From Bacillota bacterium (GTDB lineage: Bacteria; Bacillota; UBA994), in NCBI GenBank assembly GCA_018333655.1, contig JAGXTJ010000034.1, positions 12,716 through 76,715 on the forward strand: a DNA stretch of 64,000 nucleotides, written 5' to 3'. Each line of letters starts with the position of its first letter. Positions within the stretch are counted from its first letter, which is position 1. Positions 15,711 through 58,295 of this stretch are shown one piece after another. The translations under genes were made by a program, and so were the position numbers. The notes beneath the pieces were generated by a model. It saw only the letters and a list, made by a program, of their open reading frames with translations. It was not told the DNA's origin and searched no databases.

Positions 15711-15714
15711 GACA

Positions 15715-16917: not shown

Positions 16918-16925
16918 TGCACTTT

Positions 16926-16988
16926 GCGACAGCGGGGACGGTTCTTTTTGTCGGTATTTGCGACAAAAAGAACCGTCCCCGCTGTCGC
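16926..16988. repeat. REP-like perfect palindrome, copy 2: 28-bp stem, 7-nt loop
   Basis: gcgacagcggggacggttctttttgtcg-gtatttg-cgacaaaaagaaccgtccccgctgtcgc. Stem identical to copy 1 (4934-4995); the loop differs by 1 nt. Starts 9 nt after the gerAC stop. Confidence 0.85.
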
Positions 16989-17038
16989 TGATCTCTTGGA
17001 CATAAACAAAGACCCCGCCGGATATACTCCCATGGGGG

Positions 17039-27913: not shown

Positions 27914-28014
27914 CGATTCACAGGCGAAATCTTCTTGCCACCAGCAGGAATAATTGTTCACAGGGCGAAGTAAAAGCTAGGACAAGCGAAGTATTTTGGA
28001 GGGGGGATTAAGGC

Positions 28015-40216: not shown

Positions 40217-41203
40217 TTGAAAAAGATATACATCAGAGATCTTGCCGTGGGCATGCAAATCAAGAGTCCTTTTATTGTGGTCGATAGAAGGCTCATCAAT
40301 TACACCCGCAATGGGGCACCAGCTTGCGGGCTCGTCCTGACGCTCGGGGATAGGACGGGCAAAGCCTCGGCGGTTACCTGGCACGAGGCCCTTGTCAAAG
40401 ACTCATCCTACCGCAAAGATGATGTCGTGTTGGTCATGGGTAAGGTGCAGGACTACAAAGGCGAGAAGCAAATTTATCTGGAAGAAGTCTCTAAGGCCAA
40501 CTTGGCAGAAGTGAACGCCGAAGATTTTTGTGCTCCTCCACCACGGCCCATAGATGCGATGTGGCGCGAGCTAGAGGGGTACATGGCGACCATCAGTAAT
40601 CCCTATCTTAAAGCGCTGCTAGCGGCTTGCTTTGCTGACCCGCAAATTAAACATGCCTTTTGTCAGACCCCTGCCGGACGCGAAGTCCATCATGCCTACA
40701 CGGGGGGTCTCTTGCAACATACTCTAGAAGTTATCTCTTACGCGGAAAAGATGGTTGAAGTGCAAGGCAATTACCTGAATCGAGATTTGCTTCTAACGGG
40801 CGCAATTCTCCACGATTATGCTAAAGTGGACGAATACGAGCTGCGTGCTTTTACATATGACTTTACGGACCGCGGGAGGCTCATCGGGCATCTCGTACTA
40901 GGTTCGGAAAGAGTCGGTAAACTTGCTCTGGGCATAGAGAACTTCCCCCCGTTGCTTCGTGATGAACTTCAGCACATGATCTTAAGTCATCACGGGCACC
41001 GCGAATGGGGTTCTCCTGAAGAACCCAAGACCGCTAACGCCGTGGCCTTACACCTGGCAGATCTCACCAGTGGGAAGATAGGGCAGGTAGAGCGAATCAT
41101 TAAAGACACTTTGTCGCTTGGCGAACGTTGGTCCGCCTGGGACAAGCGACTAGAGTGCGCAATTTTAGCAGCTAACTGGGGAGGCGAGGATCATGAAGCG
41201 TAA
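40217..41203 (+). CDS. yhaM: 3'-5' exoribonuclease YhaM (OB-fold plus HD domain)
   Basis: N-terminal OB fold. HD motifs HHAYTGGLLQHTLEV, LHDYAKV, HMILSHHG. Confidence 0.75.
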   Translation: MKKIYIRDLAVGMQIKSPFIVVDRRLINYTRNGAPACGLVLTLGDRTGKASAVTWHEALVKDSSYRKDDVVLVMGKVQDYKGEKQIYLEEVSKANLAEVNAEDFCAPPPRPIDAMWRELEGYMATISNPYLKALLAACFADPQIKHAFCQTPAGREVHHAYTGGLLQHTLEVISYAEKMVEVQGNYLNRDLLLTGAILHDYAKVDEYELRAFTYDFTDRGRLIGHLVLGSERVGKLALGIENFPPLLRDELQHMILSHHGHREWGSPEEPKTANAVALHLADLTSGKIGQVERIIKDTLSLGERWSAWDKRLECAILAANWGGEDHEA

Positions 41204-41606
41204 TCTGTCCATTCTCTTGGTTGTCGTGGTCGTGGGCATCGTTTGGTACCTGTCTAGACCGGCGGTTCCCGCTATAAAGTCTGTCGCACCGCTTACCGAG
41301 TTCCATCAGGCCATCGAACGAGGGCGCCCGATTTTCATTATGTTTACGAAGACGGGTTGCAGTTCCTGTGTGGCCATGTATCCCATTGTGCAAACCCTCA
41401 AGGATGAATTTGAGGACCGTATGGCGATGATTGTTGCCGACATCGGGGACGACCAAGGCTGGGAATTGTCCAGAGAGTTTGACTTTAGGGCTGTACCGCA
41501 CTTTATTGTGATTGGCAATCAAGGGGGCCAAGATACCTATACCGGGCACACAACGGCAGAACAACTACGTGGAATGATAGAGGCAGCGTTGGCGTGGGCG
41601 CCTTAG
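41193..41606 (+). CDS. Membrane-anchored thioredoxin-like protein (CxxC = CSSC)
   Basis: N-terminal TM helix. FTKTGCSSCVAMYP thioredoxin-fold active site. Paired with ccdA downstream. Confidence 0.6.
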   Translation: MKRNLSILLVVVVVGIVWYLSRPAVPAIKSVAPLTEFHQAIERGRPIFIMFTKTGCSSCVAMYPIVQTLKDEFEDRMAMIVADIGDDQGWELSREFDFRAVPHFIVIGNQGGQDTYTGHTTAEQLRGMIEAALAWAP

Positions 41607-42271
41607 AGACTTTGCAGTCCCTGCTGACGGGCAATTTTCCGGTGGCCTTGTTGGCCTCTTTTTTCGCCGGACTACTCACAAGTTTTTCTCCTTGTGTCAT
41701 TGCCATGTCTCCTGTAGTGCTCGGCTATGTTGGTGCCTATGGTGGTAACAATAAATTGCGCAATTTACAGTTAGTCGTGTTCTTGGTAGTCGGCCTAGCA
41801 GTGGCCTTTGCCATACTCGGGCTCATTGCTGCGCTCATTGGGGGTATTTTCGGTCAGCTTTCTGACGTAGCGCCGCTAGTCCTCGGAGCCGTGCTGATCA
41901 TTGTGGGGCTAAACTTGATGAAACTAGTTACTATTCCAGCCCTTGGCCTAAAGAAATGGCCAGTCCGCGTCAGCGGCAGAGGCGGCGCATTTTTGACAGG
42001 GCTCTTTTTTGGTGTGGCGGCCTCGCCATGCGCTACTGGGTTTCTGGCCGTTATTATCAGCCTGGCAGCGGTCTCGGATCGCCCCCTGCAGAGTGCAGCC
42101 CTGCTCTTTGCCTACGGCCTAGGACATGGCGTCCCCCTCATAATCGTGGGACTGACCGCCGGAACTATTAAATCGTTGCGTCAATTTAGTCAGTACTGGG
42201 ATTATTTCTCTTATGTGGCAGGGTTGCTGTTCGTCGGTGTTGGTGTTTACCTGTTTGCCTTGTGGCTGTAG
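41594..42271 (+). CDS. ccdA: Cytochrome c-type biogenesis protein CcdA (DsbD-like thiol-disulfide transporter)
   Basis: Two conserved Cys in TM helices (SFSPCVIAM; AASPCATGF). 6 TM helices. Confidence 0.8.
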   Translation: MGALETLQSLLTGNFPVALLASFFAGLLTSFSPCVIAMSPVVLGYVGAYGGNNKLRNLQLVVFLVVGLAVAFAILGLIAALIGGIFGQLSDVAPLVLGAVLIIVGLNLMKLVTIPALGLKKWPVRVSGRGGAFLTGLFFGVAASPCATGFLAVIISLAAVSDRPLQSAALLFAYGLGHGVPLIIVGLTAGTIKSLRQFSQYWDYFSYVAGLLFVGVGVYLFALWL

Positions 42272-43851: not shown

Positions 43852-43884
43852 AAACTGTCGACGCAGTTGTCGGCAGTTTTTTGT
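43852..43884 (+). terminator. Rho-independent terminator (imperfect stem)
   Basis: aactgtcgac-gcagt-tgtcggcagtt followed by TTTTTT. Confidence 0.5.
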
Positions 43885-43980
43885 TTGAGGCCGAGAAGAA
43901 ACTTAAGTGTTGAATGTGGTTAGCGAGTCTAGGGTGTGGTAGAATGGGCAATGGAGAGTGCAGATGCGGAGGGGTTTTTT

Positions 43981-45081
43981 ATGCGCGAAATCATCAAGTT
44001 AAGTCTAATACTTGCCATTATTTGCTCTGTTGCCGGCGCGGCATTAGCAGCCACCTATTCTGTAACGAGCAATATCATCGCTGAGCGGCAGCAGGCGGAG
44101 TTAAATATGCGCCTGCAGGAGCTCCTACCACTCGCGGATACTTTCACCCCTGTGGTGGCCGATGGCGTGACTTACTACCTGGCAACCCGCGCGGGGCAGC
44201 CTGCAGGGGCCGTGATGGTGGCGGCGGGCAGGGGATATGCCGGACCCATAGATTTGTTGGTGTCTTTTGCGGCTGATGGCAAGGTGCAGGGTGTTAAGGT
44301 CACCGGTCACAGTGAGACGGCGGGCATTGGAAATCGGGTAGAGACGCCAAGCTTTTTAAGACAGTTTGTTGGCAAAGAACAGGGGCAACCAGTTGCTATC
44401 GGCCAAGACATTGTCGCTGCTACAGGCGCTACAGTCTCGGCGCGTGGGGTCGCGGCAGGCGTGCGCCAGGCCATTGCCGACTTTAATGTGCATGTACTAC
44501 GCGCTCCCCCAACTATTGAAGAGTTCGACTTGTCGCGCGTGCGCGATGGCGTATATAAGGGAGAAGCTCCGGGCTTTTATGGCCCAGTCACGGTTGAGGT
44601 CACCGTTCTCGGCAGCAAAATCACACAAGTCACGGTTAGCCACGTTGATACGCCAGAGGTGGCAGATGAGGCTGCGGAGATCATTCCGCGTCGCATAGTT
44701 GACAAGCAGCATTTTCGGGTCGATGTAGTGTCAGGAGCGACCGCTACAAGTGAAGCCATCATGCTGGCGGTGCGAAATGCAGTACCAGAGCCCGTCTTAG
44801 AAATTAGCGAGTTGGCAGATGGCGAGTATGAGGGTGAAGGCGAAGGCTTAATGGGCCCCATCCGGGTTCGCGTTACAGTACAAGGTGGTAGGGTGGTCAA
44901 CATCGGAGTTCTGGCGCATAGCGAGACGCCCGACTATGCTGCCCGTGCTTTTCCGGTGATCACAGCGGCGGTCATGGAGAAACAGGCTCTGCAAGTTGAC
45001 GTCGTGAGTGGAGCGACCGCGGCGAGCGAGGGGCTACTGACTGCACTCAAAACAGCTCTAGAAAAAGCGCCGCTCAGGTAG
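43981..45081 (+). CDS. Membrane-anchored extracytoplasmic protein with three FMN_bind (RnfG/NqrC-type) domains
   Basis: N-terminal TM helix. Domain 1 RnfG-like (VTGHSETAGIG..., IVAATGATVSARGV). Domains 2 and 3 each carry a flavinylation-type motif (VDVVSGATATSEAI; VDVVSGATAASEGL). ATG 7 nt after GGAGGGG. Confidence 0.75.
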   Translation: MREIIKLSLILAIICSVAGAALAATYSVTSNIIAERQQAELNMRLQELLPLADTFTPVVADGVTYYLATRAGQPAGAVMVAAGRGYAGPIDLLVSFAADGKVQGVKVTGHSETAGIGNRVETPSFLRQFVGKEQGQPVAIGQDIVAATGATVSARGVAAGVRQAIADFNVHVLRAPPTIEEFDLSRVRDGVYKGEAPGFYGPVTVEVTVLGSKITQVTVSHVDTPEVADEAAEIIPRRIVDKQHFRVDVVSGATATSEAIMLAVRNAVPEPVLEISELADGEYEGEGEGLMGPIRVRVTVQGGRVVNIGVLAHSETPDYAARAFPVITAAVMEKQALQVDVVSGATAASEGLLTALKTALEKAPLR

Positions 45082-45107
45082 CGCAAGTAGTATTTGACTG
45101 ATTCATT

Positions 45108-45143
45108 AAGCTACCGTCTAGGGTGGTAGCTTTTCACTTTTTG
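45108..45143 (+). terminator. Rho-independent terminator between the FMN-binding gene and mrpE
   Basis: aagctacc-gtctagg-gtggtagctt followed by ttttcacttttt. Confidence 0.6.
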
Positions 45144-45154
45144 GAGGTGGCAAT

Positions 45155-45655
45155 GTGCCCAGTTGGAAACGCAGGTTAGGCTGGACTGTAGTCCTGTTCT
45201 TAACTTGGATACTATTTGCCCAGAGCTTTCATTGGCAATCGCTGATAACCGGGATTGTGGTAGCTTTTTTTGTCACAATGTGGAACGATGATTTGCTCCT
45301 TAGTCTAAGCAACGACTTACATGTAGAGCGTAGGACTATGGTCCAGTGGTTTATGTTTGCGGTGTGGTTAGTAATTGATATATGCAAAGCCGCCTGGCAA
45401 GTAGCTGTGGTTGCCTGTGCGTTTCGCATGGACATACAGCCCCAGTACGTAACGCATCCCATCAAAGTGCATGAACCTGCCATGCGCATGGTTCTGGCCA
45501 ATAGTATTACTCTGACACCAGGCACCCTTACTGTGGAGGCTCCGCAAAAGGGTGAGTTTGTGGTGCATGCCCTGACGGACGCGGCGGCCGAGGGCCTCAA
45601 AGACTGGCACATCGAGAATCGTCTGGTGGCCATAGAGAGGAGACTGCCTAGATGA
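45155..45655 (+). CDS. mrpE: Mrp-type cation/H+ antiporter subunit E
   Basis: MnhE-like (ITLTPGTLTVE). 4-nt overlap with the next gene. Confidence 0.75.
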   Translation: MPSWKRRLGWTVVLFLTWILFAQSFHWQSLITGIVVAFFVTMWNDDLLLSLSNDLHVERRTMVQWFMFAVWLVIDICKAAWQVAVVACAFRMDIQPQYVTHPIKVHEPAMRMVLANSITLTPGTLTVEAPQKGEFVVHALTDAAAEGLKDWHIENRLVAIERRLPR

Positions 45656-45921
45656 CATTATCGGCCTTGCTCATCACCTGCCTAGGGTTAGTTCTGCTCA
45701 CCTTTGCTGCCCTCTATCGCGCTGTGGCTGGGCCCACACCGGCAGATCGGGTGGTGGCCATTAACGTGATTGGCACAAAAACCATGGTCGTACTCATATT
45801 AATTGGTTATATTTTTCAGGAGGCTCCGTTCTATATCGACGTGGCCATGGTCTATGCGCTTATTAGTTTCTTGCTGACTATTGGCGTTGCGCGCTACCTC
45901 GAAAAAGGCACCATTGTGTGA
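45652..45921 (+). CDS. mrpF: Mrp antiporter subunit F
   Basis: 89 aa, 3 TM, MnhF-like. Confidence 0.7.
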   Translation: MTLSALLITCLGLVLLTFAALYRAVAGPTPADRVVAINVIGTKTMVVLILIGYIFQEAPFYIDVAMVYALISFLLTIGVARYLEKGTIV

Positions 45922-45936
45922 GGAAGGAGCAACAAC

Positions 45937-46251
45937 ATGATTAACTTGCTTGCTGAAATCATCGGCGTTGCCTTTCTATTGGCGGGGTTCTTTTTCTTTG
46001 CCGCCGGCACGCTTGGCCTTATTCGTTTCCCCGATGTCTTGACACGCATGCATGCCACCACCAAGTGCGATACTTTGGGCGCAGGGCTGATCCTGGTGGG
46101 GCTAATGTTCTTTTCGGATTCTGTCTACCTTATGTTGAAGTTGGCCGTAATTATTGTATTTCTGTGGATAGCCAACCCCACCGCCGCGCACTACATGGCT
46201 CGCGCGGTCTACCGCACCGAAGGGAGTGACGACAGTGCTGGCAGCGATTAA
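45937..46251 (+). CDS. mrpG: Mrp antiporter subunit G
   Basis: 104 aa, MnhG-like (ANPTAAHYMARA). Confidence 0.7.
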   Translation: MINLLAEIIGVAFLLAGFFFFAAGTLGLIRFPDVLTRMHATTKCDTLGAGLILVGLMFFSDSVYLMLKLAVIIVFLWIANPTAAHYMARAVYRTEGSDDSAGSD

Positions 46252-46477
46252 TATCCTCCTTTTGGTATTTTTGGTGATTTGTGCCGTTGTCGTAGCTCGC
46301 ATCAAGGATTTGCTCAGCGCGGTTATCATTTTTGGGGCTTACAGCATGGTCATGTCTATTATTTGGCAGCAGCTTCACTCGCCTGATATCGCGATCACGG
46401 AGGCAGCTATTGGTGCAGGCGCTACGTCGTTGCTATTCTTGGCCGCTATTAGCCGCACAAGGAGGCATGAAGAATGA
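46235..46477 (+). CDS. DUF4040 (MbhD / MrpA-C-terminal-like) small membrane subunit
   Basis: HSPDIAITEAAIGAGATSLLFL matches the DUF4040 core. Start GTG at 46235 or 46226. Confidence 0.6.
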   Translation: MLAAINILLLVFLVICAVVVARIKDLLSAVIIFGAYSMVMSIIWQQLHSPDIAITEAAIGAGATSLLFLAAISRTRRHEE

Positions 46478-46755
46478 AAAAAGTTTTGCCCGTACTTGTA
46501 CTGGCGGCCATTGGCGTTTTGCTGGTCTTGACTGTGGCCGAAATGCCGACCTTTGGCGATAGCTATGCCCCGGCGCACCGCGGAGTTATGGACAAATACT
46601 TGCAAGATAGCGCTGTGGACACGGGGGCGATCAACACAATTGCCGCCATCATTTTAGACTACCGCGCCTACGATACTTTGGGAGAAGCTACTGTGCTTTT
46701 CGTAGCTGTTTTGGCTGTTACTGCGGCGCTTCACGGGGGCGGACATCATGCATGA
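46474..46755 (+). CDS. MnhB-domain small subunit (MbhE-like)
   Basis: INTIAAIILDYRAYDTLGEATVLF motif. Confidence 0.6.
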   Translation: MKKVLPVLVLAAIGVLLVLTVAEMPTFGDSYAPAHRGVMDKYLQDSAVDTGAINTIAAIILDYRAYDTLGEATVLFVAVLAVTAALHGGGHHA

Positions 46756-47188
46756 TCTCATTCTTGAAGTTGTAAATCGCTTACTCTTGCCTTTCATTCA
46801 GCTTTTCGGCATGTACATTCTCTTTCACGGCCACCTCTCCCCTGGTGGAGGCTTCTCGGGTGGTGCCGTCATCGGGGCAAGCTTAATACTTTACAGCTTG
46901 ACATTCCGCTTTGCTAAAGTTAAACACCGCATGGACCATGACACCTCGGTCTTTTTTGAGGCGGCTGGTGCGCTAATTTACGTGGGGATAGGCTTTGTCG
47001 GCCTGTTTTTTGGCTACAACTACCTTACCAACAGAGGTGTTTTTCCCCTCGGCGTACCAGGGCAGCTATGGAGTAGCGGCATGATTCTCGTCATCACCCT
47101 CGCCCTAGGGGCCAAAGTGAGCGGCACGATTCTGTCACTATTCCAAGAACTCTTGGAAGGGGGGAGTGATGAACATGGTACTCCTTGA
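46748..47188 (+). CDS. mrpB: Mrp antiporter subunit B
   Basis: GHLSPGGGFSGG motif. Confidence 0.7.
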   Translation: MHDLILEVVNRLLLPFIQLFGMYILFHGHLSPGGGFSGGAVIGASLILYSLTFRFAKVKHRMDHDTSVFFEAAGALIYVGIGFVGLFFGYNYLTNRGVFPLGVPGQLWSSGMILVITLALGAKVSGTILSLFQELLEGGSDEHGTP

Positions 47189-47546
47189 ACGGCTGTACAC
47201 TAACATCTACTACTTAGTTGCGGTGGTGCTCTTTGTCATTGGGTTTCACACTATGCTCACTCACAAGAACCTCATCAAAAAATTGATGGCTCTAAATATC
47301 ATGGATACCGCCATTTTTCTCTTCTTTGTGGCCATTGGGTATCGTCAAGGCGGGCAGGCTCCTATACTCGTGCCTGGGGTCGAGAAGTTTGTCAACCCAA
47401 TCCCGTCCGCGCTAATTCTCACTGGTATAGTTATTTCTGTGAGCTTTACCGCCTTTGCGCTGGCACTGGTGGTCCTCCTTTACAAACACTATGGGACCCT
47501 TGATTCTGATGAAATAATCGCGATTAGAGGCAAAAAACATGTTTAG
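47175..47546 (+). CDS. mrpC: Mrp antiporter subunit C (NuoK-like)
   Basis: 3 TM. NuoK/MnhC-like (KNLIKKLMALNIMDTAIFLFFVAIG). Confidence 0.7.
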   Translation: MVLLERLYTNIYYLVAVVLFVIGFHTMLTHKNLIKKLMALNIMDTAIFLFFVAIGYRQGGQAPILVPGVEKFVNPIPSALILTGIVISVSFTAFALALVVLLYKHYGTLDSDEIIAIRGKKHV

Positions 47547-49005
47547 TATAAGTCATGCCCCTATTCTTATGGTCGTTACACTACTCATGACTGCGTTTGT
47601 CGTGCCGCTTGTGCGTAAGAACATGCGCCTAGCCAAAGGGCTTTTTCTTGGCGCCGGTCTCATAGTTGTTGCGCTAGCAGTATTAATTACCTTAGAGGTG
47701 CTACAGTCTGGCACCATGATTTATGCGGTGGGGGAATGGTCTGCACCGCATGGTATTGAGCTCGTGGTAGACGCCTTCGCGGCCTATGCTTCTTTGGTAG
47801 TTTCTGTTATTTCCTTTATTATATACTGGTTTATCGTTTTTGCCCCCCGTGAAGTCAACTATGAGGCGGGCTACTATGCCTTGATTCTACTACTGTCCGC
47901 GGCTATGCATGGCATTGTCATGGCTGGTGATATCTTTAATCTCTTTGTCTTTGTCGAGATTAGTTCACTGGCAGCGGTCGCTATTATTGCGGTAAAGGGA
48001 ACTAAGGAGAGTATCGAGGCCAGCTTTCGTTACCTGATGTTGAGCGCACTTGGTTCAGGGGGGCTCTTGTTTAGTATCGCCCTGCTCTTTATGATAACGG
48101 GGCATCTTAACATGGGCTACATGAGGGTAGCTCTCGCTACCACGGCAGGGCAGTACCCCTTGAACCTGTTGACGGCCCTAGCCTTTATGGTCATTGGGCT
48201 AGGCGTCAAGTCAGCGCTCTTCCCCCTTCATATCTGGTTGCCTGATGCCCATGCTAATGCCCCTACGGGCTCGAGTGCACTGCTCTCGGGGCTTGTCGTT
48301 AAAGTATATGTTATTGCCTTCATGCGCATCGCCTACATGTTGCTTGGCATGGATCTATTTTATATCTTGCCACTTCGCCAAATTCTCCTTGTTTTGGCGG
48401 CACTGGCCATTATAGCTGGCTCCGTATTCGCCATTGTGCAGGACAATATTAAGCGCCTTTTGGCATTTTCTACTGTTGCACAGGTTGGGTACATCTTTCT
48501 TGGGTTTTCTTTGCTAACCGCAAGGGCAGTAGAAGGTGCAATTTGGCACATTCTTATCCATGCCATCATGAAGACATTGTTGTTTTTGGCTGTTGGTGTG
48601 GTTATACAGCAGAGTGGGTACAAGAAAATCTCCCAGGTACATGGCCTGGCGCGCCGCATGCCGTTGACTTTTGCCTGCATCACCCTAGGTGCTTTGTCTA
48701 TGGTCGGTATACCGGGTACAGCGGGTTTTATCTCCAAGTTGTATCTCGCGCTAGGAGCGCTCGATGCTGGTCTGGTTATTTTTGCCGTACTAATTCTTAT
48801 TAGCAGTCTCTTGTCTGCAATCTACTATTTTCCCCTCATTATTACGGCCTACTTCGGACATGATGCTTCGCCGGATGTTAAGGAACCTAGTCTCGCCGTG
48901 CGCTTGCCGCTGGTCATTCTTTCCTTGGCAATTCTATTTTACGGCCTCATGCCCTCGATGTTGCTGCCTTTAGTGCGTCAAACGGCCTTGCTGATAACGC
49001 GTTAA
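47539..49005 (+). CDS. Antiporter-like subunit MrpD / NuoN-M family (proton-pumping membrane subunit)
   Basis: 488 aa, about 14 TM. Proton_antipo_M signatures (LFVFVEISSLAAVA, LPDAHANAPTGSSALLSG). Confidence 0.8.
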   Translation: MFSISHAPILMVVTLLMTAFVVPLVRKNMRLAKGLFLGAGLIVVALAVLITLEVLQSGTMIYAVGEWSAPHGIELVVDAFAAYASLVVSVISFIIYWFIVFAPREVNYEAGYYALILLLSAAMHGIVMAGDIFNLFVFVEISSLAAVAIIAVKGTKESIEASFRYLMLSALGSGGLLFSIALLFMITGHLNMGYMRVALATTAGQYPLNLLTALAFMVIGLGVKSALFPLHIWLPDAHANAPTGSSALLSGLVVKVYVIAFMRIAYMLLGMDLFYILPLRQILLVLAALAIIAGSVFAIVQDNIKRLLAFSTVAQVGYIFLGFSLLTARAVEGAIWHILIHAIMKTLLFLAVGVVIQQSGYKKISQVHGLARRMPLTFACITLGALSMVGIPGTAGFISKLYLALGALDAGLVIFAVLILISSLLSAIYYFPLIITAYFGHDASPDVKEPSLAVRLPLVILSLAILFYGLMPSMLLPLVRQTALLITR

Positions 49006-49021
49006 ATTTGGAGGGTTGGTC

Positions 49022-50503
49022 ATGAGTTTGTTACTTCAGTCGCCAGTTTTGGCGGTTATTATTCCCTTGCTGTTCTTTGTCGTCATTTACATGGTCGAGC
49101 GGCGCTCTTGGCGACTGCGCAATGCACTAGCTGTGCTCGCCCCACTCGCCTCGTTTGTGTTTTTAGCGAGCAACTACTCCCGTGTGCTCGCGGGAGAGAG
49201 AGTCTTGATTGAGTTTCCTGCGATACTGCCGCCACTAGGCATGTCTTTTAGTGTAGACTACCTCTCGCTACTTGTGGGTCTTGTGGTGTCGGGAGTGTGG
49301 TTCTTAGTGGCAGTCTATTCTACGGAGTACATGGTCAAGGAACATGCCAAGAACCGCTACTATCCCTTCTCGACCCTGACCTTGGCAGGAACCATGGGAG
49401 TGGTACTCAGTGGAGATCTGTTTACGCTCTTTTTGTTCTTTGAGCTGATGTCTCTCTCGGCGTATGTATTGGTAGTTCATGAAGAAACAGCCGAAGCCAT
49501 GCGGGCGGGGTATAAGTACCTGGTGCTCACTATTATCGGCGGGCTAGCCTTGTTTTTTGCCATTATCGCCGTCTTCGAAATTGCGGGCACGGTCTCTTTT
49601 GCCTCCGGTGGCTTTATTGCCGAGGCCAGCGGACTAGCAGTACTAGCCTTCTATGGCTTCCTTATTGGCTTTGGTATCAAGGCAGGGATAGTTCCCTTGC
49701 ATGTCTGGCTGCCCGAGGCACATCCTGTTGCTCCTAGCCCAGCTAGTGCTTTGCTTTCGGGCATTATGCTTAAGACCGGGGTTTACGGCCTCATACGTGT
49801 TGTCTTCAATGTATTCGGTCACGAGGTAGTAAGGGCGGGCGGTTTGGATACAGTTCTGCTAGGTTTAGCTGCCGTGACAATTTTTCTCGGCTCAGCGGTA
49901 GCCATCGCCCAAGATGATATAAAAAGGCGTCTTGCCTATTCGAGCGTTGGACAGATGGGCTATATCTTGCTCGGCATCGGGCTTTTGCAGGAGAGGGCTT
50001 TAATCGGGGCCATTTTTCATATCTTTGCCCACGCCATCATGAAGGCCACACTGTTTTTGTCGGCTGGAGCGATTATCTACAAGACCGGCAAGAGGCGTGT
50101 ATCGGAGTGGCGAGGCCTTGGCCGCGAGATGACGGTCACCATGGTCTCCTTCACCGTAGCCGCTCTCTCCATGATTGGCATTCCGCCCTTGGTTGGTTTT
50201 GTCTCGAAGTGGGAGTTGGCCCTAGGGTCACTTGACGCGGGGAGCTGGGGCTTTGTCATCCTGCTCTTGCTCAGCTCACTGATGAATTTTATCTACTACT
50301 TCCCTGTCATTCAAAATACCCTTTTTGGCGAGCAACACGCAGCCAAAGAGGTGTCCCCCAAAACTCGTGAATTACCTTTAGCCATGCTTGCGCCCATTGT
50401 CTTCATGGCTCTGGTCATTGTTTTTGTCGATCTCTTTCCGCAAAGCGGGGTGCTTGACTTGGCTAAGCGGGCAGCCCAGGCACTATTTCTCGTTGTTAAG
50501 TAA
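49022..50503 (+). CDS. Antiporter-like subunit MrpD / NuoM family (paralog 2)
   Basis: 494 aa. LFLFFELMSLSAYVLV, WLPEAHPVAPSPASALLSG. Confidence 0.8.
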   Translation: MSLLLQSPVLAVIIPLLFFVVIYMVERRSWRLRNALAVLAPLASFVFLASNYSRVLAGERVLIEFPAILPPLGMSFSVDYLSLLVGLVVSGVWFLVAVYSTEYMVKEHAKNRYYPFSTLTLAGTMGVVLSGDLFTLFLFFELMSLSAYVLVVHEETAEAMRAGYKYLVLTIIGGLALFFAIIAVFEIAGTVSFASGGFIAEASGLAVLAFYGFLIGFGIKAGIVPLHVWLPEAHPVAPSPASALLSGIMLKTGVYGLIRVVFNVFGHEVVRAGGLDTVLLGLAAVTIFLGSAVAIAQDDIKRRLAYSSVGQMGYILLGIGLLQERALIGAIFHIFAHAIMKATLFLSAGAIIYKTGKRRVSEWRGLGREMTVTMVSFTVAALSMIGIPPLVGFVSKWELALGSLDAGSWGFVILLLLSSLMNFIYYFPVIQNTLFGEQHAAKEVSPKTRELPLAMLAPIVFMALVIVFVDLFPQSGVLDLAKRAAQALFLVVK

Positions 50504-50514
50504 GGAGAGGGAAG

Positions 50515-52752
50515 ATGGATTCTCTGAACTTGTTGCTCTTAACTCCGACCATCATTCCCATTCTAGGTGCGGTGCTGATTTTATGCGGGACGGTGCGTTC
50601 TTGGTTGTGGCCTCGCCTTGTGGCGGTGGTGGCAGGGCTGCTTACGCTCTCCTCTACTGCTCTGATCTTCCAGCTCGGCCGAAACGGCACTGTACTAGAA
50701 CTCAATCTACTTCAAGTCGTAGACTATGGACTGAGCTTTCGTCCCTCCTTCTTGGGGTCGACTCTGGCCCTGCTTGTCGCGGGGTTATGGGTGCTGGCGA
50801 CCTTGTTCGCAGCTTCTTACCTGCAACACACACATTCGCCGCGGCGTTTTTTCTCTTTTTTTCTCCTCAGCATGAGCGGCTGCCTTGGCGTATTCTTGGC
50901 CGCGGATTACTTTACCCTCTTTGTCTTCTTTGAGTTTATGACCTTCACGGCCTATCCCCTAGTCGTTCATGCGGAAAACGATCACGCTCGCCGAGCGGGG
51001 GATATCTACCTCTACATGAGCGTCGCTGGTGGGCTAGTACTGCTATTTGGCGTCTTGCTACTGGTTTGGACGACGGGTACGGCCGAGATAACGCCGCAGC
51101 TGCATGTATTGCTGGAGAGAGGCGTCAACCCCTATGCCGTGGCCCTGATGTTTGTCGTAGGTTTTGGGCTCAAGATGGGCCTTGTTCCCCTCCATATCTG
51201 GCTGCCCTACACATACACCTCTGCCCCTGCCCCGGCAACGGCCATGCTTTCTGGTGCCATGAATAAAACTGGCGTCTATGGCCTGGTGACTTTTTTGACC
51301 ATCACTCTGGCCGGCAATTCCGCTACTCTCGCGAGTGCCGCTGCACGCGTACAGGAGAACCTCGGCTTGGTGTTAATGGTGGTGGGGCTGGCCACGATGT
51401 TAATCGGGGGCTATCTCGCCTTAATTCAAAACAACATCAAGCGCCTGCTGGCCTATTCGAGCGTTAGCCAGATGGGCTACATACTGCTGGCAGTGGCCTC
51501 AGTGATGTACCTCACCAAGGAAGGTGGCTTAGCTCACACGGCAGCCGTCTACCACGCCTTCAACCATGCCTTGTTCAGCACAGCCTTGTTTCTTTTGGCA
51601 GGCGTAATCTATCTTGCCGCAGGTAGCCTCCACTTGGAACGCCTGGGTGGCTTAGCACGTTTCCTGCCATTTACGGCGATTACTACTCTTATCGCCGCCT
51701 TGTCTGTACTGGGACTACCTGGTTTCGCTGGCTTTGGTAGCAAGACCTTAATCCATAAAGCCCTCGTAGCCGCAGCAGAGCATGGCGCCAGCCCGTGGTT
51801 GCTCCTAGCTGAAAAGCTATTTGTCGTAGGCAGTGCCATCACCGCCGCTTACTTCATCAAACTGTACTTGGGTGTGTTTTTTGGCCAGTTTAAAGGTGAG
51901 CGCCTGCGTAGCCGGCACGAAGGATGGCTCTCGCGGGGGGTTCTCACCCTCTTAAGTGTGAGTATGTTACTTGTCGGCGCCTTTCCGGGGGCTGTTATGC
52001 GTTTCTTTAGCCTTGCAGCGGAAGGAACCCTGGTTAATACAGCCTACTTGGCCAAGAAGCTGCCAACTATCAATTTTTGGACGGCCTATGCCTACGGTGG
52101 GGTGTTTTGGCCCTTTGTCATAGGTGCGGGTTTGTATATTTTGGCCAAGTACAGTGGCCTGTTTGGCTGGCGTTACCCGAAATGGCTGTCTATTGAGGGG
52201 GTTATTTTTCGTCCGGCCTACCAGGCCTTCCTCATTTTTTGCTGTCGCTACGCCACTAAGGCCGATGGGGGCATTTGCGATGTCTATGACAGGGGTGGTA
52301 CCATTTCTGGCCGTTTGTTGCGTCGTGTCAAGAGGTTTGACGACCTCATTGATGAAGGCTATGATGCGGTGGGGCACGGCACCACGCAACTTGTTGAACA
52401 GGCTAGGCAGCTCGATCAGGGCGTGGGCAAGATGTACAAAGTTGCGGGGCAGCGTGCGCAGGCCGTTGCACAGACTATGAGTGCTCTTGACGCTAGTGTG
52501 AGTGTTGGCTACGCCAAGGCCGGTGAGGCCGCCTTGCGCGTTACCGAAGGCCTGACAGAATTAGAGCAGTACGCCGAAGAGGGCGCGACTCAAGCAGCTG
52601 TAATCATCACTTCAAGAGAAGCTCTCGCTCCACGCGTCTCCGAAGACACCGCTTTCAACTTGCAGAACGTGACCATCGGGTCACTTATTGTCGCCGTGCT
52701 TTTGCTTATATTGCTGGCTATCCTGTACATCTTCGGCGGACAAGTTTTGTAG
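50515..52752 (+). CDS. Antiporter-like subunit, MrpA/NuoL family, with about 180-aa predicted helical extramembrane segment and a single C-terminal TM helix
   Basis: 745 aa. LFVFFEFMTFTAYPLV, WLPYTYTSAPAPATAMLSGAM. C-terminal region (GTTQLVEQARQLDQG...AEEGATQAAV) is followed by the TM helix IGSLIVAVLLLILLAILYIF. No MrpB-like fusion. Confidence 0.8.
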   Translation: MDSLNLLLLTPTIIPILGAVLILCGTVRSWLWPRLVAVVAGLLTLSSTALIFQLGRNGTVLELNLLQVVDYGLSFRPSFLGSTLALLVAGLWVLATLFAASYLQHTHSPRRFFSFFLLSMSGCLGVFLAADYFTLFVFFEFMTFTAYPLVVHAENDHARRAGDIYLYMSVAGGLVLLFGVLLLVWTTGTAEITPQLHVLLERGVNPYAVALMFVVGFGLKMGLVPLHIWLPYTYTSAPAPATAMLSGAMNKTGVYGLVTFLTITLAGNSATLASAAARVQENLGLVLMVVGLATMLIGGYLALIQNNIKRLLAYSSVSQMGYILLAVASVMYLTKEGGLAHTAAVYHAFNHALFSTALFLLAGVIYLAAGSLHLERLGGLARFLPFTAITTLIAALSVLGLPGFAGFGSKTLIHKALVAAAEHGASPWLLLAEKLFVVGSAITAAYFIKLYLGVFFGQFKGERLRSRHEGWLSRGVLTLLSVSMLLVGAFPGAVMRFFSLAAEGTLVNTAYLAKKLPTINFWTAYAYGGVFWPFVIGAGLYILAKYSGLFGWRYPKWLSIEGVIFRPAYQAFLIFCCRYATKADGGICDVYDRGGTISGRLLRRVKRFDDLIDEGYDAVGHGTTQLVEQARQLDQGVGKMYKVAGQRAQAVAQTMSALDASVSVGYAKAGEAALRVTEGLTELEQYAEEGATQAAVIITSREALAPRVSEDTAFNLQNVTIGSLIVAVLLLILLAILYIFGGQVL

Positions 52753-52768
52753 GAAGGGAGTGACAGTC

Positions 52769-53125
52769 TTGACCGCGTTCGACAAAAAAATAGCAGTAAT
52801 CATACTGCTAGTGGCACTTGTCATGATGGCGGGGGTACTTTACAGGCGTGTTGTGACCCCACCCGGTCAACAGTCTGTCATCTTGGTTGACAACAGGGTG
52901 GTGACCACGGTGGTTCTTGCTCCTAATGCGGAGAAAAGAGATTTCATGGTGCAAGGGGTGCGGGGCGAAAGTGTTATTCGTGTCGAAGGCTCCTACATTA
53001 GCATTGTGTCCTCGGCTTGCCCAGATCAGCTCTGTATAAAGATGGGTCGTAAGAGCCGCCCTGGCGAGGTCATCGTCTGCCTGCCTAACCGAGTGGTAGT
53101 CAGGATTGAGGGCAATGAGCACTAG
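52769..53125 (+). CDS. NusG_II (DUF1312) family membrane-anchored protein with CPxxxC motif
   Basis: TTG 6 nt after AGGGAGTG. N-terminal TM helix. ACPDQLCIKMGRKSRPGEVIVCLPNRVVVRIEG matches the PF07009-type signature. Starts 17 nt after the NuoL-like gene stop. Confidence 0.7.
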   Translation: MTAFDKKIAVIILLVALVMMAGVLYRRVVTPPGQQSVILVDNRVVTTVVLAPNAEKRDFMVQGVRGESVIRVEGSYISIVSSACPDQLCIKMGRKSRPGEVIVCLPNRVVVRIEGNEH

Positions 53126-54314
53126 CTTGCCCGGCCACAAAACCACTGGCAAACGCCCAGTGTAAATTGTAGCCCCCGCAGCGACCGTGCACGTCGAGAA
53201 CCTCTCCGGCGAAGTAAAGTCCCCCTTGCACTTTGGAGCACAGGGTGGCGGGGTCGACCTCATCTAGCGGAATACCCCCCCAGGTTGTCTGTGCTTGTTC
53301 CCAAGTGTGGAGCCCAACAATGGGAAAATCCCACCAGAAAAGCTGGCGGCTCAATCGTGCTAGCTCGGCCCGCGACAGGTCTCCGGCGAACTTCTTATGT
53401 TCTAAGCCAGCTTCTTTTAGAACAGGGAGGCAGAGCTGGTGGGGGAGGTAGCCTGCGAGCGCCTCGCTCGGGGCCTTGAACGAGAGTTCTCCCAGGTAAT
53501 GGCGCAAGAAACCGAGCAGTTTACTTTCGGTGGATTCTTCATATGCTAACTTCAGGCGTAAAGTAAGGCCCTGGCGATGACCTATGGCGCGTGAGAGGTC
53601 AAAAACAGGGATGCCAGAGAGGCCATAGTCAGTGAAAAGAACTTCGCCGTGCTCAGAGAGGCCTAGTTCTGGTATAGCCACTGTGGCCGCCAAGCGTAGC
53701 CCCGACAAGGTCTTGAGATGTGCAGATTGTAGCCGCAGTCCTACTAGGGCGGGGGAGGGAGCGAGTAGGCTATGCCCGAGGGCTTCTGCCAGTCGGTAGC
53801 CATCTCCAGTGCACCCAAGCTTTGGGGCGGCCATCCCACCTGTGGTGAGGAGCACCCGCAGGCCTTGGCTCTGCCCTGTGCCATGACGGAGAGTAAACCC
53901 TCGTGAAGTTGCTTCGATGCTGTGCACGGGGGAACTGACCGCGGTGGCAACCCCCTGGCGCGCTAGTTCGCTTAGAAGCACAGTCAGCACACTTGCGGCC
54001 TGCTTAGTGCGAGGGTACCATCTGCCCTCCTCACTGATGATGAGGAGACCTAGTTCGCCAAAAAAACGTTTTGCAGCTTGGTTGTCAAAACGCCGTAGAA
54101 CTTTTTCTGCTACTCCGACATTGGTGCTGACAAAATTATCTAACGACCAGTGGTCGTTGCCGAGGTTGCAGCGTCCATTACCGGTGGCCAGAATTTTTTT
54201 GCCGAGCTTGGCGTTTTTTTCGATGATGAGTACTTTCGCACCCCGTCTAGCGGCCACAATTGCCGCTACTAGCCCCGATGCTCCGCCACCAACAACCACT
54301 AAGTCATAAATCAT
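53100..54314 (-). CDS. FAD-dependent oxidoreductase, HI0933/BaiN (aminoacetone-oxidase-like) family
   Basis: Rossmann GxGxxG (DLVVVGGGASGLVAA). HI0933-like body. ATG at 54314; the ORF-track extension upstream is unlikely. Confidence 0.75.
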   Translation of the reverse strand: MIYDLVVVGGGASGLVAAIVAARRGAKVLIIEKNAKLGKKILATGNGRCNLGNDHWSLDNFVSTNVGVAEKVLRRFDNQAAKRFFGELGLLIISEEGRWYPRTKQAASVLTVLLSELARQGVATAVSSPVHSIEATSRGFTLRHGTGQSQGLRVLLTTGGMAAPKLGCTGDGYRLAEALGHSLLAPSPALVGLRLQSAHLKTLSGLRLAATVAIPELGLSEHGEVLFTDYGLSGIPVFDLSRAIGHRQGLTLRLKLAYEESTESKLLGFLRHYLGELSFKAPSEALAGYLPHQLCLPVLKEAGLEHKKFAGDLSRAELARLSRQLFWWDFPIVGLHTWEQAQTTWGGIPLDEVDPATLCSKVQGGLYFAGEVLDVHGRCGGYNLHWAFASGFVAGQASAHCPQS

Positions 54315-55149: not shown

Positions 55150-55941
55150 CTATACTGGGCGTCCCCTTACGGGCACCAGAGAGATTTGGGGGACGTTTTC
55201 ACTGGGGTGCGTAAATACTACTACTGGGCAGCCATAGACGGCCTCAATGAGCGGAGGACGCAGTACTTCTAGGGGAGTCCCCTTAGCAGTCAGTTCTCCC
55301 TGTGACAAGACCAAGAGTCGCTCACAGTATAGAGCGGCCAAGTTTATGTCGTGGAGTACCGTAATAATGGTCATGCCCTCTTGCGACAAAGACTTTAAGA
55401 GCGATAAGAGCTCCATCTGGTGCTTGATATCAAGATGCGCGGTCGGTTCGTCTAGCACGAGTAGGGGGCAGTCTTGGGCGAGGGCGGTAGCGATGCGCGC
55501 CCGCTGCTTTTCGCCGCCGCTCAAGGTGCTAAGGTGTCTACCCTCTAGGTCGATTATTCCCGCCTTGGCAAGTGCCTGATTGACCAGTTCCTCATCCCTT
55601 GGGGTCGCGCCCTGAAGTAGTGACTGGTGGGGTAGGCGGCCTAGGTGGGCCAGTTCTCGCACCGTTAAGTCGATGCCTAGCACACTCTCCTGTTCGACTA
55701 CCGCTAAGTGCTGCGCCATTGCTCGGTGCGAGAGCTTGGCCAGTGGGTAGCCAGCAAGCCACACCTCGCCACTTTGTGGGGTCAGCCAGCGGCTCATGAT
55801 TTTCACTAATGTCGATTTTCCGGAGCCGTTAGGTCCTATTATTCCGGTCAAAGTGCCTTTAGGGAACTCTGCGTTAATGTTCTTCAAGACAGGCCTATGG
55901 GCGAAACTAAAAGAAACATTAGAGATAACTAGCGGGTGCAT
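55150..55941 (-). CDS. ABC transporter ATP-binding protein (iron-siderophore/cobalamin type, FecE/BtuD-like)
   Basis: Walker A GPNGSGKST. Signature LSGGEKQR. Walker B LLVLDEP. Confidence 0.8.
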   Translation of the reverse strand: MHPLVISNVSFSFAHRPVLKNINAEFPKGTLTGIIGPNGSGKSTLVKIMSRWLTPQSGEVWLAGYPLAKLSHRAMAQHLAVVEQESVLGIDLTVRELAHLGRLPHQSLLQGATPRDEELVNQALAKAGIIDLEGRHLSTLSGGEKQRARIATALAQDCPLLVLDEPTAHLDIKHQMELLSLLKSLSQEGMTIITVLHDINLAALYCERLLVLSQGELTAKGTPLEVLRPPLIEAVYGCPVVVFTHPSENVPQISLVPVRGRPV

Positions 55942-56981
55942 TAGATCATCGCCTTTCGGCTTCTAGCAAGCAGGTATAAAAAGAAAGGTCCGCCCACCAA
56001 GGCCGTGATAATGCCAACTGGTAGCTCTGTCGGTCGCAGGATAAAGCGCGAGGCAATGTCAGCAGTGGTCATAAAAATAGCGCCGACCAAGGCGGAATAA
56101 GGCAGCAGGCGGCGATAATTTTCTCCGCCTAAAAGGCGTGCCATATGAGGAGTCATCAGGCCCACAAAGCCAATGACGCCACTGACAGCTACTGCGGCCG
56201 CTGTGAGCAGGGCGGTAGAACACAGGAGGAGGAAACGTACCCTTTCGACATTAACCCCCAGGTGATGCGCAGTCATGTCACCTAGGCTGATGGCCGTGAG
56301 GTAGCGGTGGTAGAAAAAAGCCAGCATGTATCCCGCTACAAGGTAAGGCGCCGCCAAAACTACATGGTGCCAGCCGCGTGCCGCAAAGCTACCCATTAGC
56401 CAGAAGAGCAGGGGATGGATTCTATTGCCGCTAAAGTATACCATGAGGGAAACTAGGGCCGAAAGAAAACTACTCATGGCTATGCCTGCCAGCAGTAACC
56501 CTAAGGTGGAACGGCCAGCTACGCGGCGGGCGAGCAGTAAGACGATGAGCAAAGTGACCACAGCGCCTATGAAGGCCATGGGTGTAATCGCGCCCAGCCC
56601 GAAGATGCTAAACTGCAAGCCAAGCAGCATGGCGGAGGCGGCCCCAAGACTAGCACCCGCCGAAACGCCCAAGATATGGGAGTCAGCGAGACCATTATGG
56701 AGAAGCCCCTGTAGGACGGCCCCTGCTGTGGCCAAGCCAGCGCCCACCATGGCGGCCAGTATTACGCGCGGCAGTCGTAGCCGAAAAATAACAATGGTTT
56801 CGTAGTCCCATTCTGTAGCCGGCTGGGACATTAACTGCACCAGGGCTGGCCCAAAACGGGCAGGGGCGATATCTACCGCCCCCAGCACCATGCCAGCAAG
56901 CATTACGAGCGCCAAAACTAGGGAGAGGGTGACGACTAGTCGCCCTCTCTTTAATTTCTCTACAACCCTGACTAACGCCAT
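55941..56981 (-). CDS. FecCD-family ABC permease (BtuC/FhuB-like)
   Basis: About 9-10 TM, FecCD-like. 1-nt overlap with the ATPase gene. Confidence 0.8.
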   Translation of the reverse strand: MALVRVVEKLKRGRLVVTLSLVLALVMLAGMVLGAVDIAPARFGPALVQLMSQPATEWDYETIVIFRLRLPRVILAAMVGAGLATAGAVLQGLLHNGLADSHILGVSAGASLGAASAMLLGLQFSIFGLGAITPMAFIGAVVTLLIVLLLARRVAGRSTLGLLLAGIAMSSFLSALVSLMVYFSGNRIHPLLFWLMGSFAARGWHHVVLAAPYLVAGYMLAFFYHRYLTAISLGDMTAHHLGVNVERVRFLLLCSTALLTAAAVAVSGVIGFVGLMTPHMARLLGGENYRRLLPYSALVGAIFMTTADIASRFILRPTELPVGIITALVGGPFFLYLLARSRKAMI

Positions 56982-58019: not shown

Positions 58020-58245
58020 AGGGGGCCCCCCATGGCTCTGACCCAGTCCCCTCGACCGAAGGACGGTGTCTGCATCGTGGGGGCAGGTCTCCTGGCTCTG
58101 GGATTCGCGCGCCCGGCTCCTTCCCGTCTGCTACTAGAGACAGTGGTCTTGCCGGGTACTACCCATTACAGTGGCGGGACCGCTCAGGACTTTAACCTGA
58201 TTCCCTTTTAATCCCCACAAACGGGGAACCTCCACAAAGGCTATT
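58020..58245 (-). promoter_or_regulatory. Cobalamin (AdoCbl) riboswitch
   Basis: Minus-strand reading contains AAGGGAATCAGGTTAAAGTCCTGAGCGGTCCCGCCACTGTAA (B12 box GCCACTG, + coordinates 58169-58175) and downstream GGGAAGGAGCCGG...CAGGAGACCTGCCC. Matches the cobalamin riboswitch consensus from memory. Confidence 0.7.
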
Positions 58246-58295
58246 TAATTGCACTACAAGTATAGCACATAAGGACATCGCGCAAAAGCTAGTCT

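Follow-up and report, generated by a model that had tools for sequence, protein, structure and literature searches.

A stretch of 64,000 nt from the metagenome-assembled genome (MAG) of a Bacillota bacterium (GenBank assembly GCA_018333655.1, contig JAGXTJ010000034.1, positions 12,716 to 76,715; hereafter the window) carries, on its + strand, a putative Mrp antiporter operon flanked by a gene for a membrane-anchored flavoprotein with three FMN_bind domains (upstream) and a gene for a NusG_II (DUF1312) protein (downstream). The ten membrane genes in between can be assigned to the Group 3 Mrp cation/proton antiporters, with the gene order of Mbh and a split MrpA. This antiporter operon probably lies between two retained ends of an rnf operon and reflects a partnership in ion cycling between the Rnf pump and Mrp, not a Mrp module driven by flavins. 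A preliminary description of the locus had proposed an undescribed coupling of the flavoprotein to Mrp; this idea has lost ground, as the flavoprotein turned out to be a homologue of RnfG and the Mrp genes of the outgroup are found inside complete rnf operons.

The components of the cluster are of known kinds, namely a Mrp module, RnfG proteins with multiple flavins and NusG_II proteins in flavin clusters. As far as our literature searches show, neither the rnf-mrp supercluster nor its derivative, in which Mrp is left with an RnfG-like protein and NusG_II, has been described. The other genes of the window are housekeeping and sporulation genes of Firmicute type, and the host is a spore-forming, Dethiobacter-like Firmicute. 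The cultured relatives of this lineage are natronophiles.

Relatives of the cluster in rnf operons

Relatives of the cluster, some of them from a metagenome scan with an alignment of six sequences, are referred to here by locus numbers (L). Five of these loci (L005, L006, L007, L008 and L093) form the window's own clade, with large antiporter subunits that are 47–79% identical, and all of them have the flavoprotein gene, the ten Mrp genes and the NusG_II gene in this order. The possibility that the FMN_bind and NusG_II neighbours are incidental, raised in the preliminary description, is not borne out: they flank Mrp in every clade member recovered, down to 47% identity, and evolve under purifying selection. 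Co-occurrence within the clade is in itself weak evidence for a functional link because the whole neighbourhood is syntenic, including an HD/OB gene, a thioredoxin gene, DsbD_TM and often an HI0933-like flavoprotein and a B12 transporter.

Outside the clade, sequence comparison places the closest relatives of all three parts, the flavoprotein, Mrp and NusG_II, in rnf-mrp superclusters. The mean score ratio of the Mrp proteins is 0.45 for L010 and at most 0.36 for any other non-clade locus. The second MrpD-like subunit (D2) is 55% identical to its rnf-mrp counterpart, compared with 37–40% for other Clostridia, and NusG_II scores 55–62 bits with the rnf-mrp loci, its nearest outgroup, compared with 25–43 bits for gut flavinylation clusters.

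The superclusters come in several forms. In L010/L095, the ten Mrp genes are embedded in the order rnfD-G(559 aa)-E-A-B, Mrp, apbE, nusG_II, hpre. A 199-kb contig (L096) has rnfC-D-G-E-A-B (with an RnfB of 101 aa) followed by ten Mrp genes and apbE, and L061 shows the same layout in a partly degraded form. Two long contigs of 0.36 and 1.1 Mb (L175/L176) carry rex-fumarase-rnfCDGEAB in front of Mrp, and L100 carries rnfCDGEAB-moaC-Mrp, with a MoaC that shares 71% identity with the one encoded after rnfB in a 'Dethiobacteria bacterium' MAG. With RnfD identities as low as 47–52% between supercluster groups, the arrangement is shared by at least three lineages. Because the outgroup Mrp sits between rnfB and apbE-nusG_II-hpre, the flanking genes of the window can be read as what marks either end of an rnf operon. 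The window shares with the superclusters the Mrp subfamily and gene order, the type of RnfG upstream and the type of NusG_II downstream, but its clade keeps only the rnfG-like gene, mrp and nusG_II, whereas the Rnf core, apbE and hpre are gone from the locus.

A related arrangement may be present in a published genome. In 'Ca. Contubernalis alkaliaceticus' (class Dethiobacteria), Rnf is encoded by HUE98_01685-01710 and a multisubunit antiporter by HUE98_01720-01765, an adjacency that is left uncommented (PMC10608574). The numbering of these tags, if read as six genes, one gene and ten genes, suggests that Rnf adjoins Mrp.

Two reduced loci from separate assemblies are close kin (RnfD 86% identical). 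Both (L046, 9400-14443; L097, about 12628-17700) consist of rnfD-G(multi-FMN)-E-A-B, genes for two antiporter-like subunits (~500 and 740-750 aa), NusG_II and Hpre; MrpEFG, MrpB, MrpC and ApbE are absent. They possibly represent an Rnf complex with attached antiporter-like subunits. Short RnfB proteins of ~100 aa, made up of a membrane anchor and the PF04060 iron–sulphur (FeS) domain, are encoded in L096 (12609-12914), L046 (9400-9696) and L061 (5062-5370); they are without the polyferredoxin part, which the RnfBs of L010, L100 and L175 (264-270 aa) retain.

The upstream flavoprotein is an RnfG homologue

As claimed in the preliminary description, the flavoprotein contains three FMN_bind domains, each with an SGAT-type motif: there are three PF04205 stretches and three [ST]GAT sites, at residues 148, 251 and 343 (nt 44422-44433, 44731-44742 and 45007-45018). 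Motifs 2 and 3 are canonical (VDVVSGAT) and motif 1 reads VAATGAT. Residues 9-166 match the rnfG profile TIGR01947 of NCBIfam with 110.4 bits (cut-off 102), covering positions 2-183 of 187, and in BLASTP it aligns collinearly, starting at residue 1, with the multi-FMN RnfGs of rnf operons, with 36-39% identity to those of L010, L061 and L046 and 37% to the RnfG of L100. Its N-terminal hydrophobic helix, read from the sequence, is MREIIKLSLILAIICSVAGAALAA. The overall layout is that of an N-terminal RnfG module, which includes the first FMN_bind domain, with two further FMN_bind repeats; a linker between successive repeats (DG-Y-G-G-GF-G---V-VT) is common to the window protein and the RnfGs encoded in rnf operons. 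The number of repeats differs between loci: L010 has five, L046, L061 and L096 have four each, the window and L005 three each, and L006, L007 and L100 only two. Judged by its sequence, the flavoprotein is an RnfG homologue, either a paralogue or a descendant.

Multi-flavinylated RnfGs have been described by Meheust et al. (2021, eLife; PMC8238504). The window protein resembles them in combining an RnfG module with extra FMN_bind repeats and SGAT sites, but differs in its first motif (VAATGAT) and in its surroundings, since the locus and the 64 kb around it are without matches to rnfD/E/A/B and apbE. Other RnfG-like homologues are orphans that lack Mrp neighbours (L091, L094, L098, L101 and L102). 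On a contig from soda-lake sediment (L092, 3326-11560), a single gene (1128 aa) encodes a fusion of a membrane domain of RnfD/NqrB type with Fer4 and formate-dehydrogenase-like molybdopterin domains; next to it come NuoE-, NuoF- and NuoG-N-like genes and a gene for a 519-aa multi-FMN_bind protein, all downstream.

NusG_II keeps the company of flavinylation genes

The NusG_II/DUF1312 gene with its CPDQLC motif lies directly downstream of the Mrp genes, in agreement with the preliminary description, and in all clade members it starts 7-16 nt past the stop codon of the large subunit. The protein has an N-terminal hydrophobic helix and the motif CPDQLC...CLPN, with a third conserved Cys in CLPN, and CPDxxC...CLP(N/H) is conserved in an alignment of 12 NusG_II homologues. 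The association of this family with ApbE, FMN_bind proteins and Gx transporters, named in the preliminary description, proved sound. At about 20 metagenome loci, NusG_II-Hpre_diP_synt_I is found with apbE and multi-FMN_bind genes and no Mrp, and NusG_II adjoins Hpre and/or ApbE in L010, L046, L061 and L097. Likewise, PF07009, which occurs 12 times in the searched portion of the supplement of Meheust et al. (PMC8238504), adjoins ApbE there, and PF00361, PF01899 and PF13244 have no occurrence in the same portion of that text. Neither Hpre_diP_synt_I (the Gx transporter) nor ApbE accompanies NusG_II in the 64-kb window. Given the genes that recur beside it, NusG_II probably assists, as an accessory protein, in the maturation or assembly of extracytoplasmic flavoproteins.

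A Group 3 Mrp module with a long last subunit

The domain content of the cluster (tri-FMN_bind protein, Mrp set, three antiporter-like subunits and NusG_II) is reproduced by Pfam matches above gathering cut-offs, which underlie all domain calls reported here. So is the co-directional, tight spacing given in the preliminary description: from mrpE to nusG_II, neighbouring genes either share 4-17 nt or lie 7-16 nt apart, according to gene calls on the identical locus in NCBI MAG GCA_018336025.1 and Logan SRR6212318. Some details had to be amended, as 45155-53125 holds eleven genes (ten Mrp genes and NusG_II) instead of ten, the gene first named MnhB encodes MbhE (PF20501), and the one named MrpB encodes the PF04039 MnhB protein.

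The gene order is EFG-B-type-C-D-D-A'. MrpA is unfused, and its C-terminal domain is encoded apart as MbhD and MbhE, which in NCBIfam alignments jointly match MrpA from about residue 620 to 785. The Mbh/archaeal-type order and the lack of a MrpB-like fusion on the large subunit, both noted previously, are thus upheld by Pfam and NCBIfam. MrpE, MrpF, MrpG, MrpB-type, MrpC and MrpD-type subunits in an irregular order are what defines Group 3, and the label 'group-2-type' used earlier should be replaced accordingly.

Known Group 3 systems are the stand-alone mrpEFGBB'CD of Pyrococcus furiosus (PMC8415708) and the mrp cluster of Natranaerobius thermophilus with its three mrpB genes (PMC5703873), of which the three mrpB-type genes of the window are reminiscent. 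The window cluster has in common with these that E-F-G come first, that MrpB-type, MrpC and MrpD-type subunits are present, and that there is neither a fused MrpA nor a redox module. It departs from them in having three antiporter-like subunits instead of one, in its last subunit of 745 aa, which is MrpA-N/NuoL-like with a helical extension of ~160 aa, and in being flanked by the RnfG-like flavoprotein and NusG_II. With Mbh, Mbs and complex I's membrane arm it shares the mbhA-H order, the MbhD/MbhE split, the NuoK-like and antiporter-like subunits and an extension of the lateral-helix type; unlike them, the 64 kb of the window lack MbhM/NuoH, a MbhJKLN or NuoBCDI redox module, and NuoA/J as such.

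The last subunit had been likened to NuoL with its lateral helix. The part of this claim that stands is a long stretch, free of hydrophobic segments from residue 502 to 713, ahead of a terminal transmembrane helix (713-744). In the AlphaFold2 (AF2) model, the core (1-550) has a pLDDT of ~90, and two long helices (560-630 and 634-694) precede the terminal transmembrane helix; the non-hydrophobic extension of ~160 aa is thus predicted to be helical, but these helices are modelled at a pLDDT of 40-60, which makes the lateral-helix idea plausible but of low confidence. The best Foldseek matches of the model are MrpA (9a6h_A, 7qru_A and 6z16_A; 612-626 aligned columns), and NuoL/NdhF are also found. 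E140, K220, K251, H347, H351 and K410 are invariant in 20 homologues; these residues presumably lie on transmembrane helices 5, 7, 8 and 12, as in NuoL and MrpA. A last subunit of 650-810 aa is general in this architecture among other Clostridia.

The Dethiobacter alkaliphilus homologue P0029 (33% identity) is uninformative for synteny because it is an orphan large subunit without Mrp neighbours. At L009 (10001-12349) of D. alkaliphilus, a 782-aa MrpA/NuoL-like subunit has the same long C-terminal extension and no Mrp neighbours, and recalls the single-subunit Nt-Nha antiporter of Natranaerobius thermophilus. A possible flavinylation site in MbhD ('GAGATS') was dismissed by inspection as part of the conserved transmembrane motif of DUF4040.

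Operon structure and selection

The terminator-like hairpin reported between the FMN_bind gene and mrpE was recovered by a hairpin scan. Its stem (GCTACCGTC..GGTGGTAGC) recurs with conserved sequence in L005, L007 and L008. L006 has no such hairpin, and its mrpE begins 15 nt past the stop codon of the flavoprotein gene. In the window, the U-run is followed by 12 nt, which include the ribosome-binding site (RBS) GGAGGT, before the GTG start codon of mrpE; mrp must therefore be transcribed through the hairpin, barring a promoter inside the flavoprotein coding sequence. Co-transcription of the flavoprotein and Mrp genes through the hairpin can thus be predicted. The short distance to mrpE and the lack of a hairpin in L006 make a full insulator unlikely, and the element likely acts as an attenuator or processing site. 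The stem is kept at the sequence level although the proteins of the relatives are ~50-55% identical, which goes beyond the need of a generic terminator; a role in regulation or processing is conceivable.

Upstream of the flavoprotein gene, an extended -10 element (TGGTAGAAT) is a candidate promoter element; it is not among the matches of a two-hexamer promoter scan. Selection was assessed as dN/dS (omega) against L005, at a dS of about 1-1.8, near saturation. Omega is 0.08 for the flavoprotein, 0.10 for NusG_II and 0.03-0.08 for the Mrp genes, and the low values of the two flanking genes indicate that both are functional and not decaying.

Stand-alone Mrp clusters and missing redox partners

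The same type of Mrp cluster also occurs without flavin genes. In about 35 loci of Clostridia, with the order E-F-G-MbhD-(MbhE)-MnhB-NuoK-D-D-(D)-long subunit, no FMN_bind or NusG_II gene lies within 10 kb. Cultured Clostridium species are represented, and among the hosts are Lachnospiraceae, Oscillospiraceae, Clostridium homopropionicum, C. mobile and Clostridium sp. BSD9I1. Two loci of related Clostridia/Lachnospiraceae (L022, 13330-14403; L029, 13465-14547) have an ApbE gene directly 3' of an 11-gene Mrp cluster, with no FMN_bind gene within 10 kb. The rnf genes are found without Mrp, too, in the Dethiobacteria MAGs L173 and L174 (rnf-moaC/apbE-hpre).

The preliminary description had reported that no redox module is encoded at the locus, and this holds for the full 64 kb. 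A phmmer search of the window with RnfD, E, A and B of L010 gave no match (RnfC had no phmmer query), nor did one with ApbE of L010, and no RnfC, RnfD or Rnf-Nqr Pfam domain was detected in the larger open reading frames (ORFs) of the window. A hydrogenase, formate dehydrogenase, NuoH/MbhM-like or NuoB/D-like partner is likewise missing from Pfam annotations of the cluster and of the window's ORFs, and a hydrogenase, formate dehydrogenase or NuoH-type partner of this Mrp was rejected on this ground.

Features of the window

Features of the cluster and its upstream region, with their positions in the window and the evidence for each
Feature	Position	Strand	Evidence and remarks
Small ORF, 79 aa	43604..43843	+	Without Pfam family; upstream of flavoprotein gene; tie to cluster uncertain
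Terminator-like hairpin and U-run	43852..43879	+	12 pairs then TTTGTTTGAG; 3' of 79-aa ORF; similar hairpin in L005
Candidate extended -10 element TGGTAGAAT	43937..43945	+	36 nt 5' of flavoprotein ATG; identical in L005
RnfG-like tri-FMN_bind protein, 366 aa, membrane-anchored	43981..45081	+	FMN_bind, 3 stretches, E 4e-46
Hairpin and U-run, flavoprotein gene/mrpE junction	45108..45143	+	Stem 45108-45132; hairpin scan
MrpE/MbhA-like subunit	45155..45655	+	PF01899 MNHE, 99 bits
MrpF/MbhB-like subunit	45652..45921	+	PF04066 MrpF_PhaF
MrpG/MbhC-like subunit	45937..46251	+	PF03334 PhaG_MnhG
MbhD (DUF4040), first half of MrpA C-terminal domain	46235..46477	+	PF13244; NCBIfam: MrpA residues ~620-690
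MbhE-like, second half of MrpA C-terminal domain	46474..46755	+	PF20501; NCBIfam: MrpA residues ~690-785
MrpB/MnhB/MbhF-like subunit	46748..47188	+	PF04039; NF006248 100.7 (cut-off 92)
MrpC/NuoK/MbhG-like subunit	47175..47546	+	PF00420 Oxidored_q2; NF005621 'antiporter subunit C' 113.5
MrpD/NuoN-M-like antiporter-like subunit, 488 aa	47539..49005	+	PF00361 Proton_antipo_M, 219.6 bits
MrpD-like antiporter-like subunit (D2), about 493 aa	49022..50503	+	PF00361 and PF00662
Large subunit, 745 aa, MrpA N-domain/NuoL-like	50515..52752	+	PF00361
NusG_II (DUF1312), membrane-anchored	52760..53125	+	PF07009, 89.6 bits

The 79-aa ORF upstream of the flavoprotein gene is kept in L005 and L007, corresponds to a called gene of 76 aa in L008, and has an omega of 0.21 against L005. 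At the other end of the cluster, a gene for an HI0933-like protein with flavin adenine dinucleotide (FAD) (53100-54314, - strand) is convergent with nusG_II, the 3' ends overlapping by 26 nt; it is found at the same place in L005, L006, L093 and, after an inserted DAGK gene, L008, but not in L007. Further away, a group II intron (26129-27917; Rfam matches to D1-D4 and domain V/VI) surrounds an ORF of 496 aa (26357-27847), and a cobalamin riboswitch (58065-58248, - strand) lies 5' of a minus-strand Peripla_BP_2/FecCD/ABC_tran transporter operon (55150-57874). The AT skew over the Mrp genes (46001-52000) is -0.22 to -0.29, with a similar dip at 14001-16000 over a spore germination permease gene; we attribute the skew to T-rich codons in genes for very hydrophobic proteins.

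A model for the Rnf–Mrp partnership and its alternatives

In our model, the product of the ten Mrp genes would be a Mrp/CPA3-type antiporter that exchanges Na+(K+) and H+ by secondary transport, a function predicted from homology. MrpEFG and MrpB would form the Na+ side, MbhD and MbhE would together provide the C-terminal domain of MrpA, and MrpC, the two MrpD-like subunits and the MrpA-N/NuoL-like subunit would contribute proton paths, with the long lateral helix of the large subunit clamping the proton-path subunits together. In the sister lineages, Mrp would have been inserted between rnfB (or moaC) and apbE-nusG_II-hpre, and one transcription unit would there combine a ferredoxin:NAD+ Na+ pump with an antiporter that interconverts Na+ and H+ gradients. 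The window clade would have arisen by gene loss: the Rnf core, apbE and hpre would have disappeared from the locus, and the rnfG-like gene, mrp and nusG_II would have stayed as a single operon under purifying selection. In this lineage the antiporter may serve pH and Na+ homeostasis and the interconversion of Na+ and H+ gradients; the RnfG-like protein and NusG_II would most likely work with Rnf, ApbE or another electron source encoded elsewhere, and not drive Mrp.

A functional pairing of Rnf and Mrp is suggested by the embedding of Mrp in the rnf operons of relatives and has a precedent in Methanosarcina acetivorans. During growth on acetate, this archaeon strongly expresses both rnf and mrp, the latter with an induction of about 8- to 12-fold, and its relatives M. 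mazei and M. barkeri have neither (PMC2838876). As in the pairing proposed here, a Na+-pumping Rnf occurs together with a Mrp antiporter; in M. acetivorans, however, the two clusters are separate and not joined in one operon, and its Mrp belongs to Group 1 (mrpABCDEFG).

Several observations sit less comfortably with this model. The first motif of the window flavoprotein (VAATGAT) has lost the Asp at position -6, which the RnfGs embedded in rnf operons keep (D-A-I/R-SGAT), and the protein may for that reason no longer act as a classical RnfG. The Rnf core and ApbE are absent from 64 kb, and a protein-database search with RnfD yielded no match assignable to the source MAG. The direction of events, loss of the Rnf core as opposed to independent assembly, is taken from a similarity ranking, not a rooted phylogeny. 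Finally, the long retention of the rnfG-like gene and nusG_II with mrp after loss of the Rnf core hints at a tie closer than co-regulation.

Such a tie would be physical if the RnfG-like protein with its three flavins and NusG_II were partners of Mrp in a hybrid redox-ion machine, with an Rnf core elsewhere or none. In the relatives, the counterpart would be an Rnf-Mrp supercomplex, where electron transfer is coupled mechanically or electrostatically to the antiporter-like subunits, comparable to the joining of a hydrogenase with Mrp that led to Mbh and complex I. The operon linkage kept across the clade, the lack of promoter space before mrpE and the direct 15-nt junction in L006 are in keeping with this idea, as are the embedding of Mrp in rnf operons in at least three lineages and purifying selection on all parts. 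It would also accommodate the reduced variants, with two antiporter-like subunits only, directly after rnfB (L046 and L097), and the RnfBs cut to ~100 aa and the PF04060 FeS domain only (L096, L061 and L046). However, there is no transmembrane electron path (RnfD/E/A, NuoH-like or hydrogenase) at the window locus, nor a known way for extracytoplasmic flavins to drive antiporter-like subunits; some 35 loci have the same Mrp architecture with no flavin gene nearby, and NusG_II is common in flavin clusters without Mrp (about 20 loci). The shared operon is explained equally well if a Na+ pump is co-regulated with a Na+/H+ exchanger, and we consider a hybrid machine unlikely.

At the opposite extreme, Mrp could merely have been inserted in or beside a flavinylation/rnf locus, its neighbours being unrelated to it in function. 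The flavoprotein and NusG_II would then work only with one another and with an Rnf or ApbE system elsewhere; one such role, put forward for multi-flavinylated proteins, is to carry electrons across the Gram-positive wall outside the cytoplasm. A hairpin with a U-run, conserved in 4 of 5 relatives, does separate the flavoprotein gene from mrpE, RnfG-like orphans occur without Mrp (the five loci named above), NusG_II is tied to ApbE/FMN_bind clusters without Mrp, L173 and L174 have rnf-apbE-hpre without Mrp, and Meheust et al. treat multi-flavin proteins without mention of Mrp (PMC8238504). Set against this are an insertion kept in several lineages, with RnfDs 47-52% identical and always at the same place, nusG_II 7-16 nt past the last Mrp gene in every clade member, and no room for a promoter of mrpE's own; Rnf and Mrp, moreover, make a physiologically sensible pair (PMC2838876). 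Unrelated neighbours thus seem rather improbable to us, although this explanation deserves to be taken seriously. Very little, finally, speaks for a flavoprotein that is served by the thioredoxin and DsbD_TM (CcdA) proteins encoded upstream and not by Rnf or Mrp. The two genes (41193-41606 and 41594-42271) are on the same strand, 1.7 kb upstream, the pair is kept there in L005-L008 and L093, and PF02683 within five genes of an FMN_bind gene counts as a DsbD system according to Meheust et al. (PMC8238504). Published DsbD systems, though, use DUF3570 and DUF4266 and not FMN_bind proteins, and a glycosyltransferase gene, a small ORF and a terminator-like hairpin stand in between. The pair meets RnfG-like genes only in the window's clade, where the whole neighbourhood is syntenic, including the unrelated HD/OB gene, and thioredoxin/DsbD was rejected as the electron source on account of this limited co-occurrence; we regard it as highly improbable.

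Outlook

The ion-translocating part of complex I, Mbh, Mbs and related enzymes goes back to Mrp modules, and to our knowledge these have so far been known joined to redox modules of the hydrogenase type. Test cases for a physical association of Rnf with Mrp are available in the complete superclusters, in the loci with only two antiporter-like subunits and in the shortened RnfB proteins. Should the hybrid machine, against our expectation, prove real, it would be a previously unknown modular respiratory machine that combines Rnf-type flavin/Fe-S electron transfer with Mrp antiporter-like subunits, in parallel to the origin of Mbh and complex I from a hydrogenase and Mrp, and the window clade would be its stripped-down derivative. 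NusG_II (DUF1312), for its part, gains a clearer home in flavinylation systems. Above all, the loci described here document a conserved genetic coupling of the Rnf pump and the Mrp Na+/H+ exchanger, the two main Na+-cycle machines of anaerobic and alkaliphilic Firmicutes.

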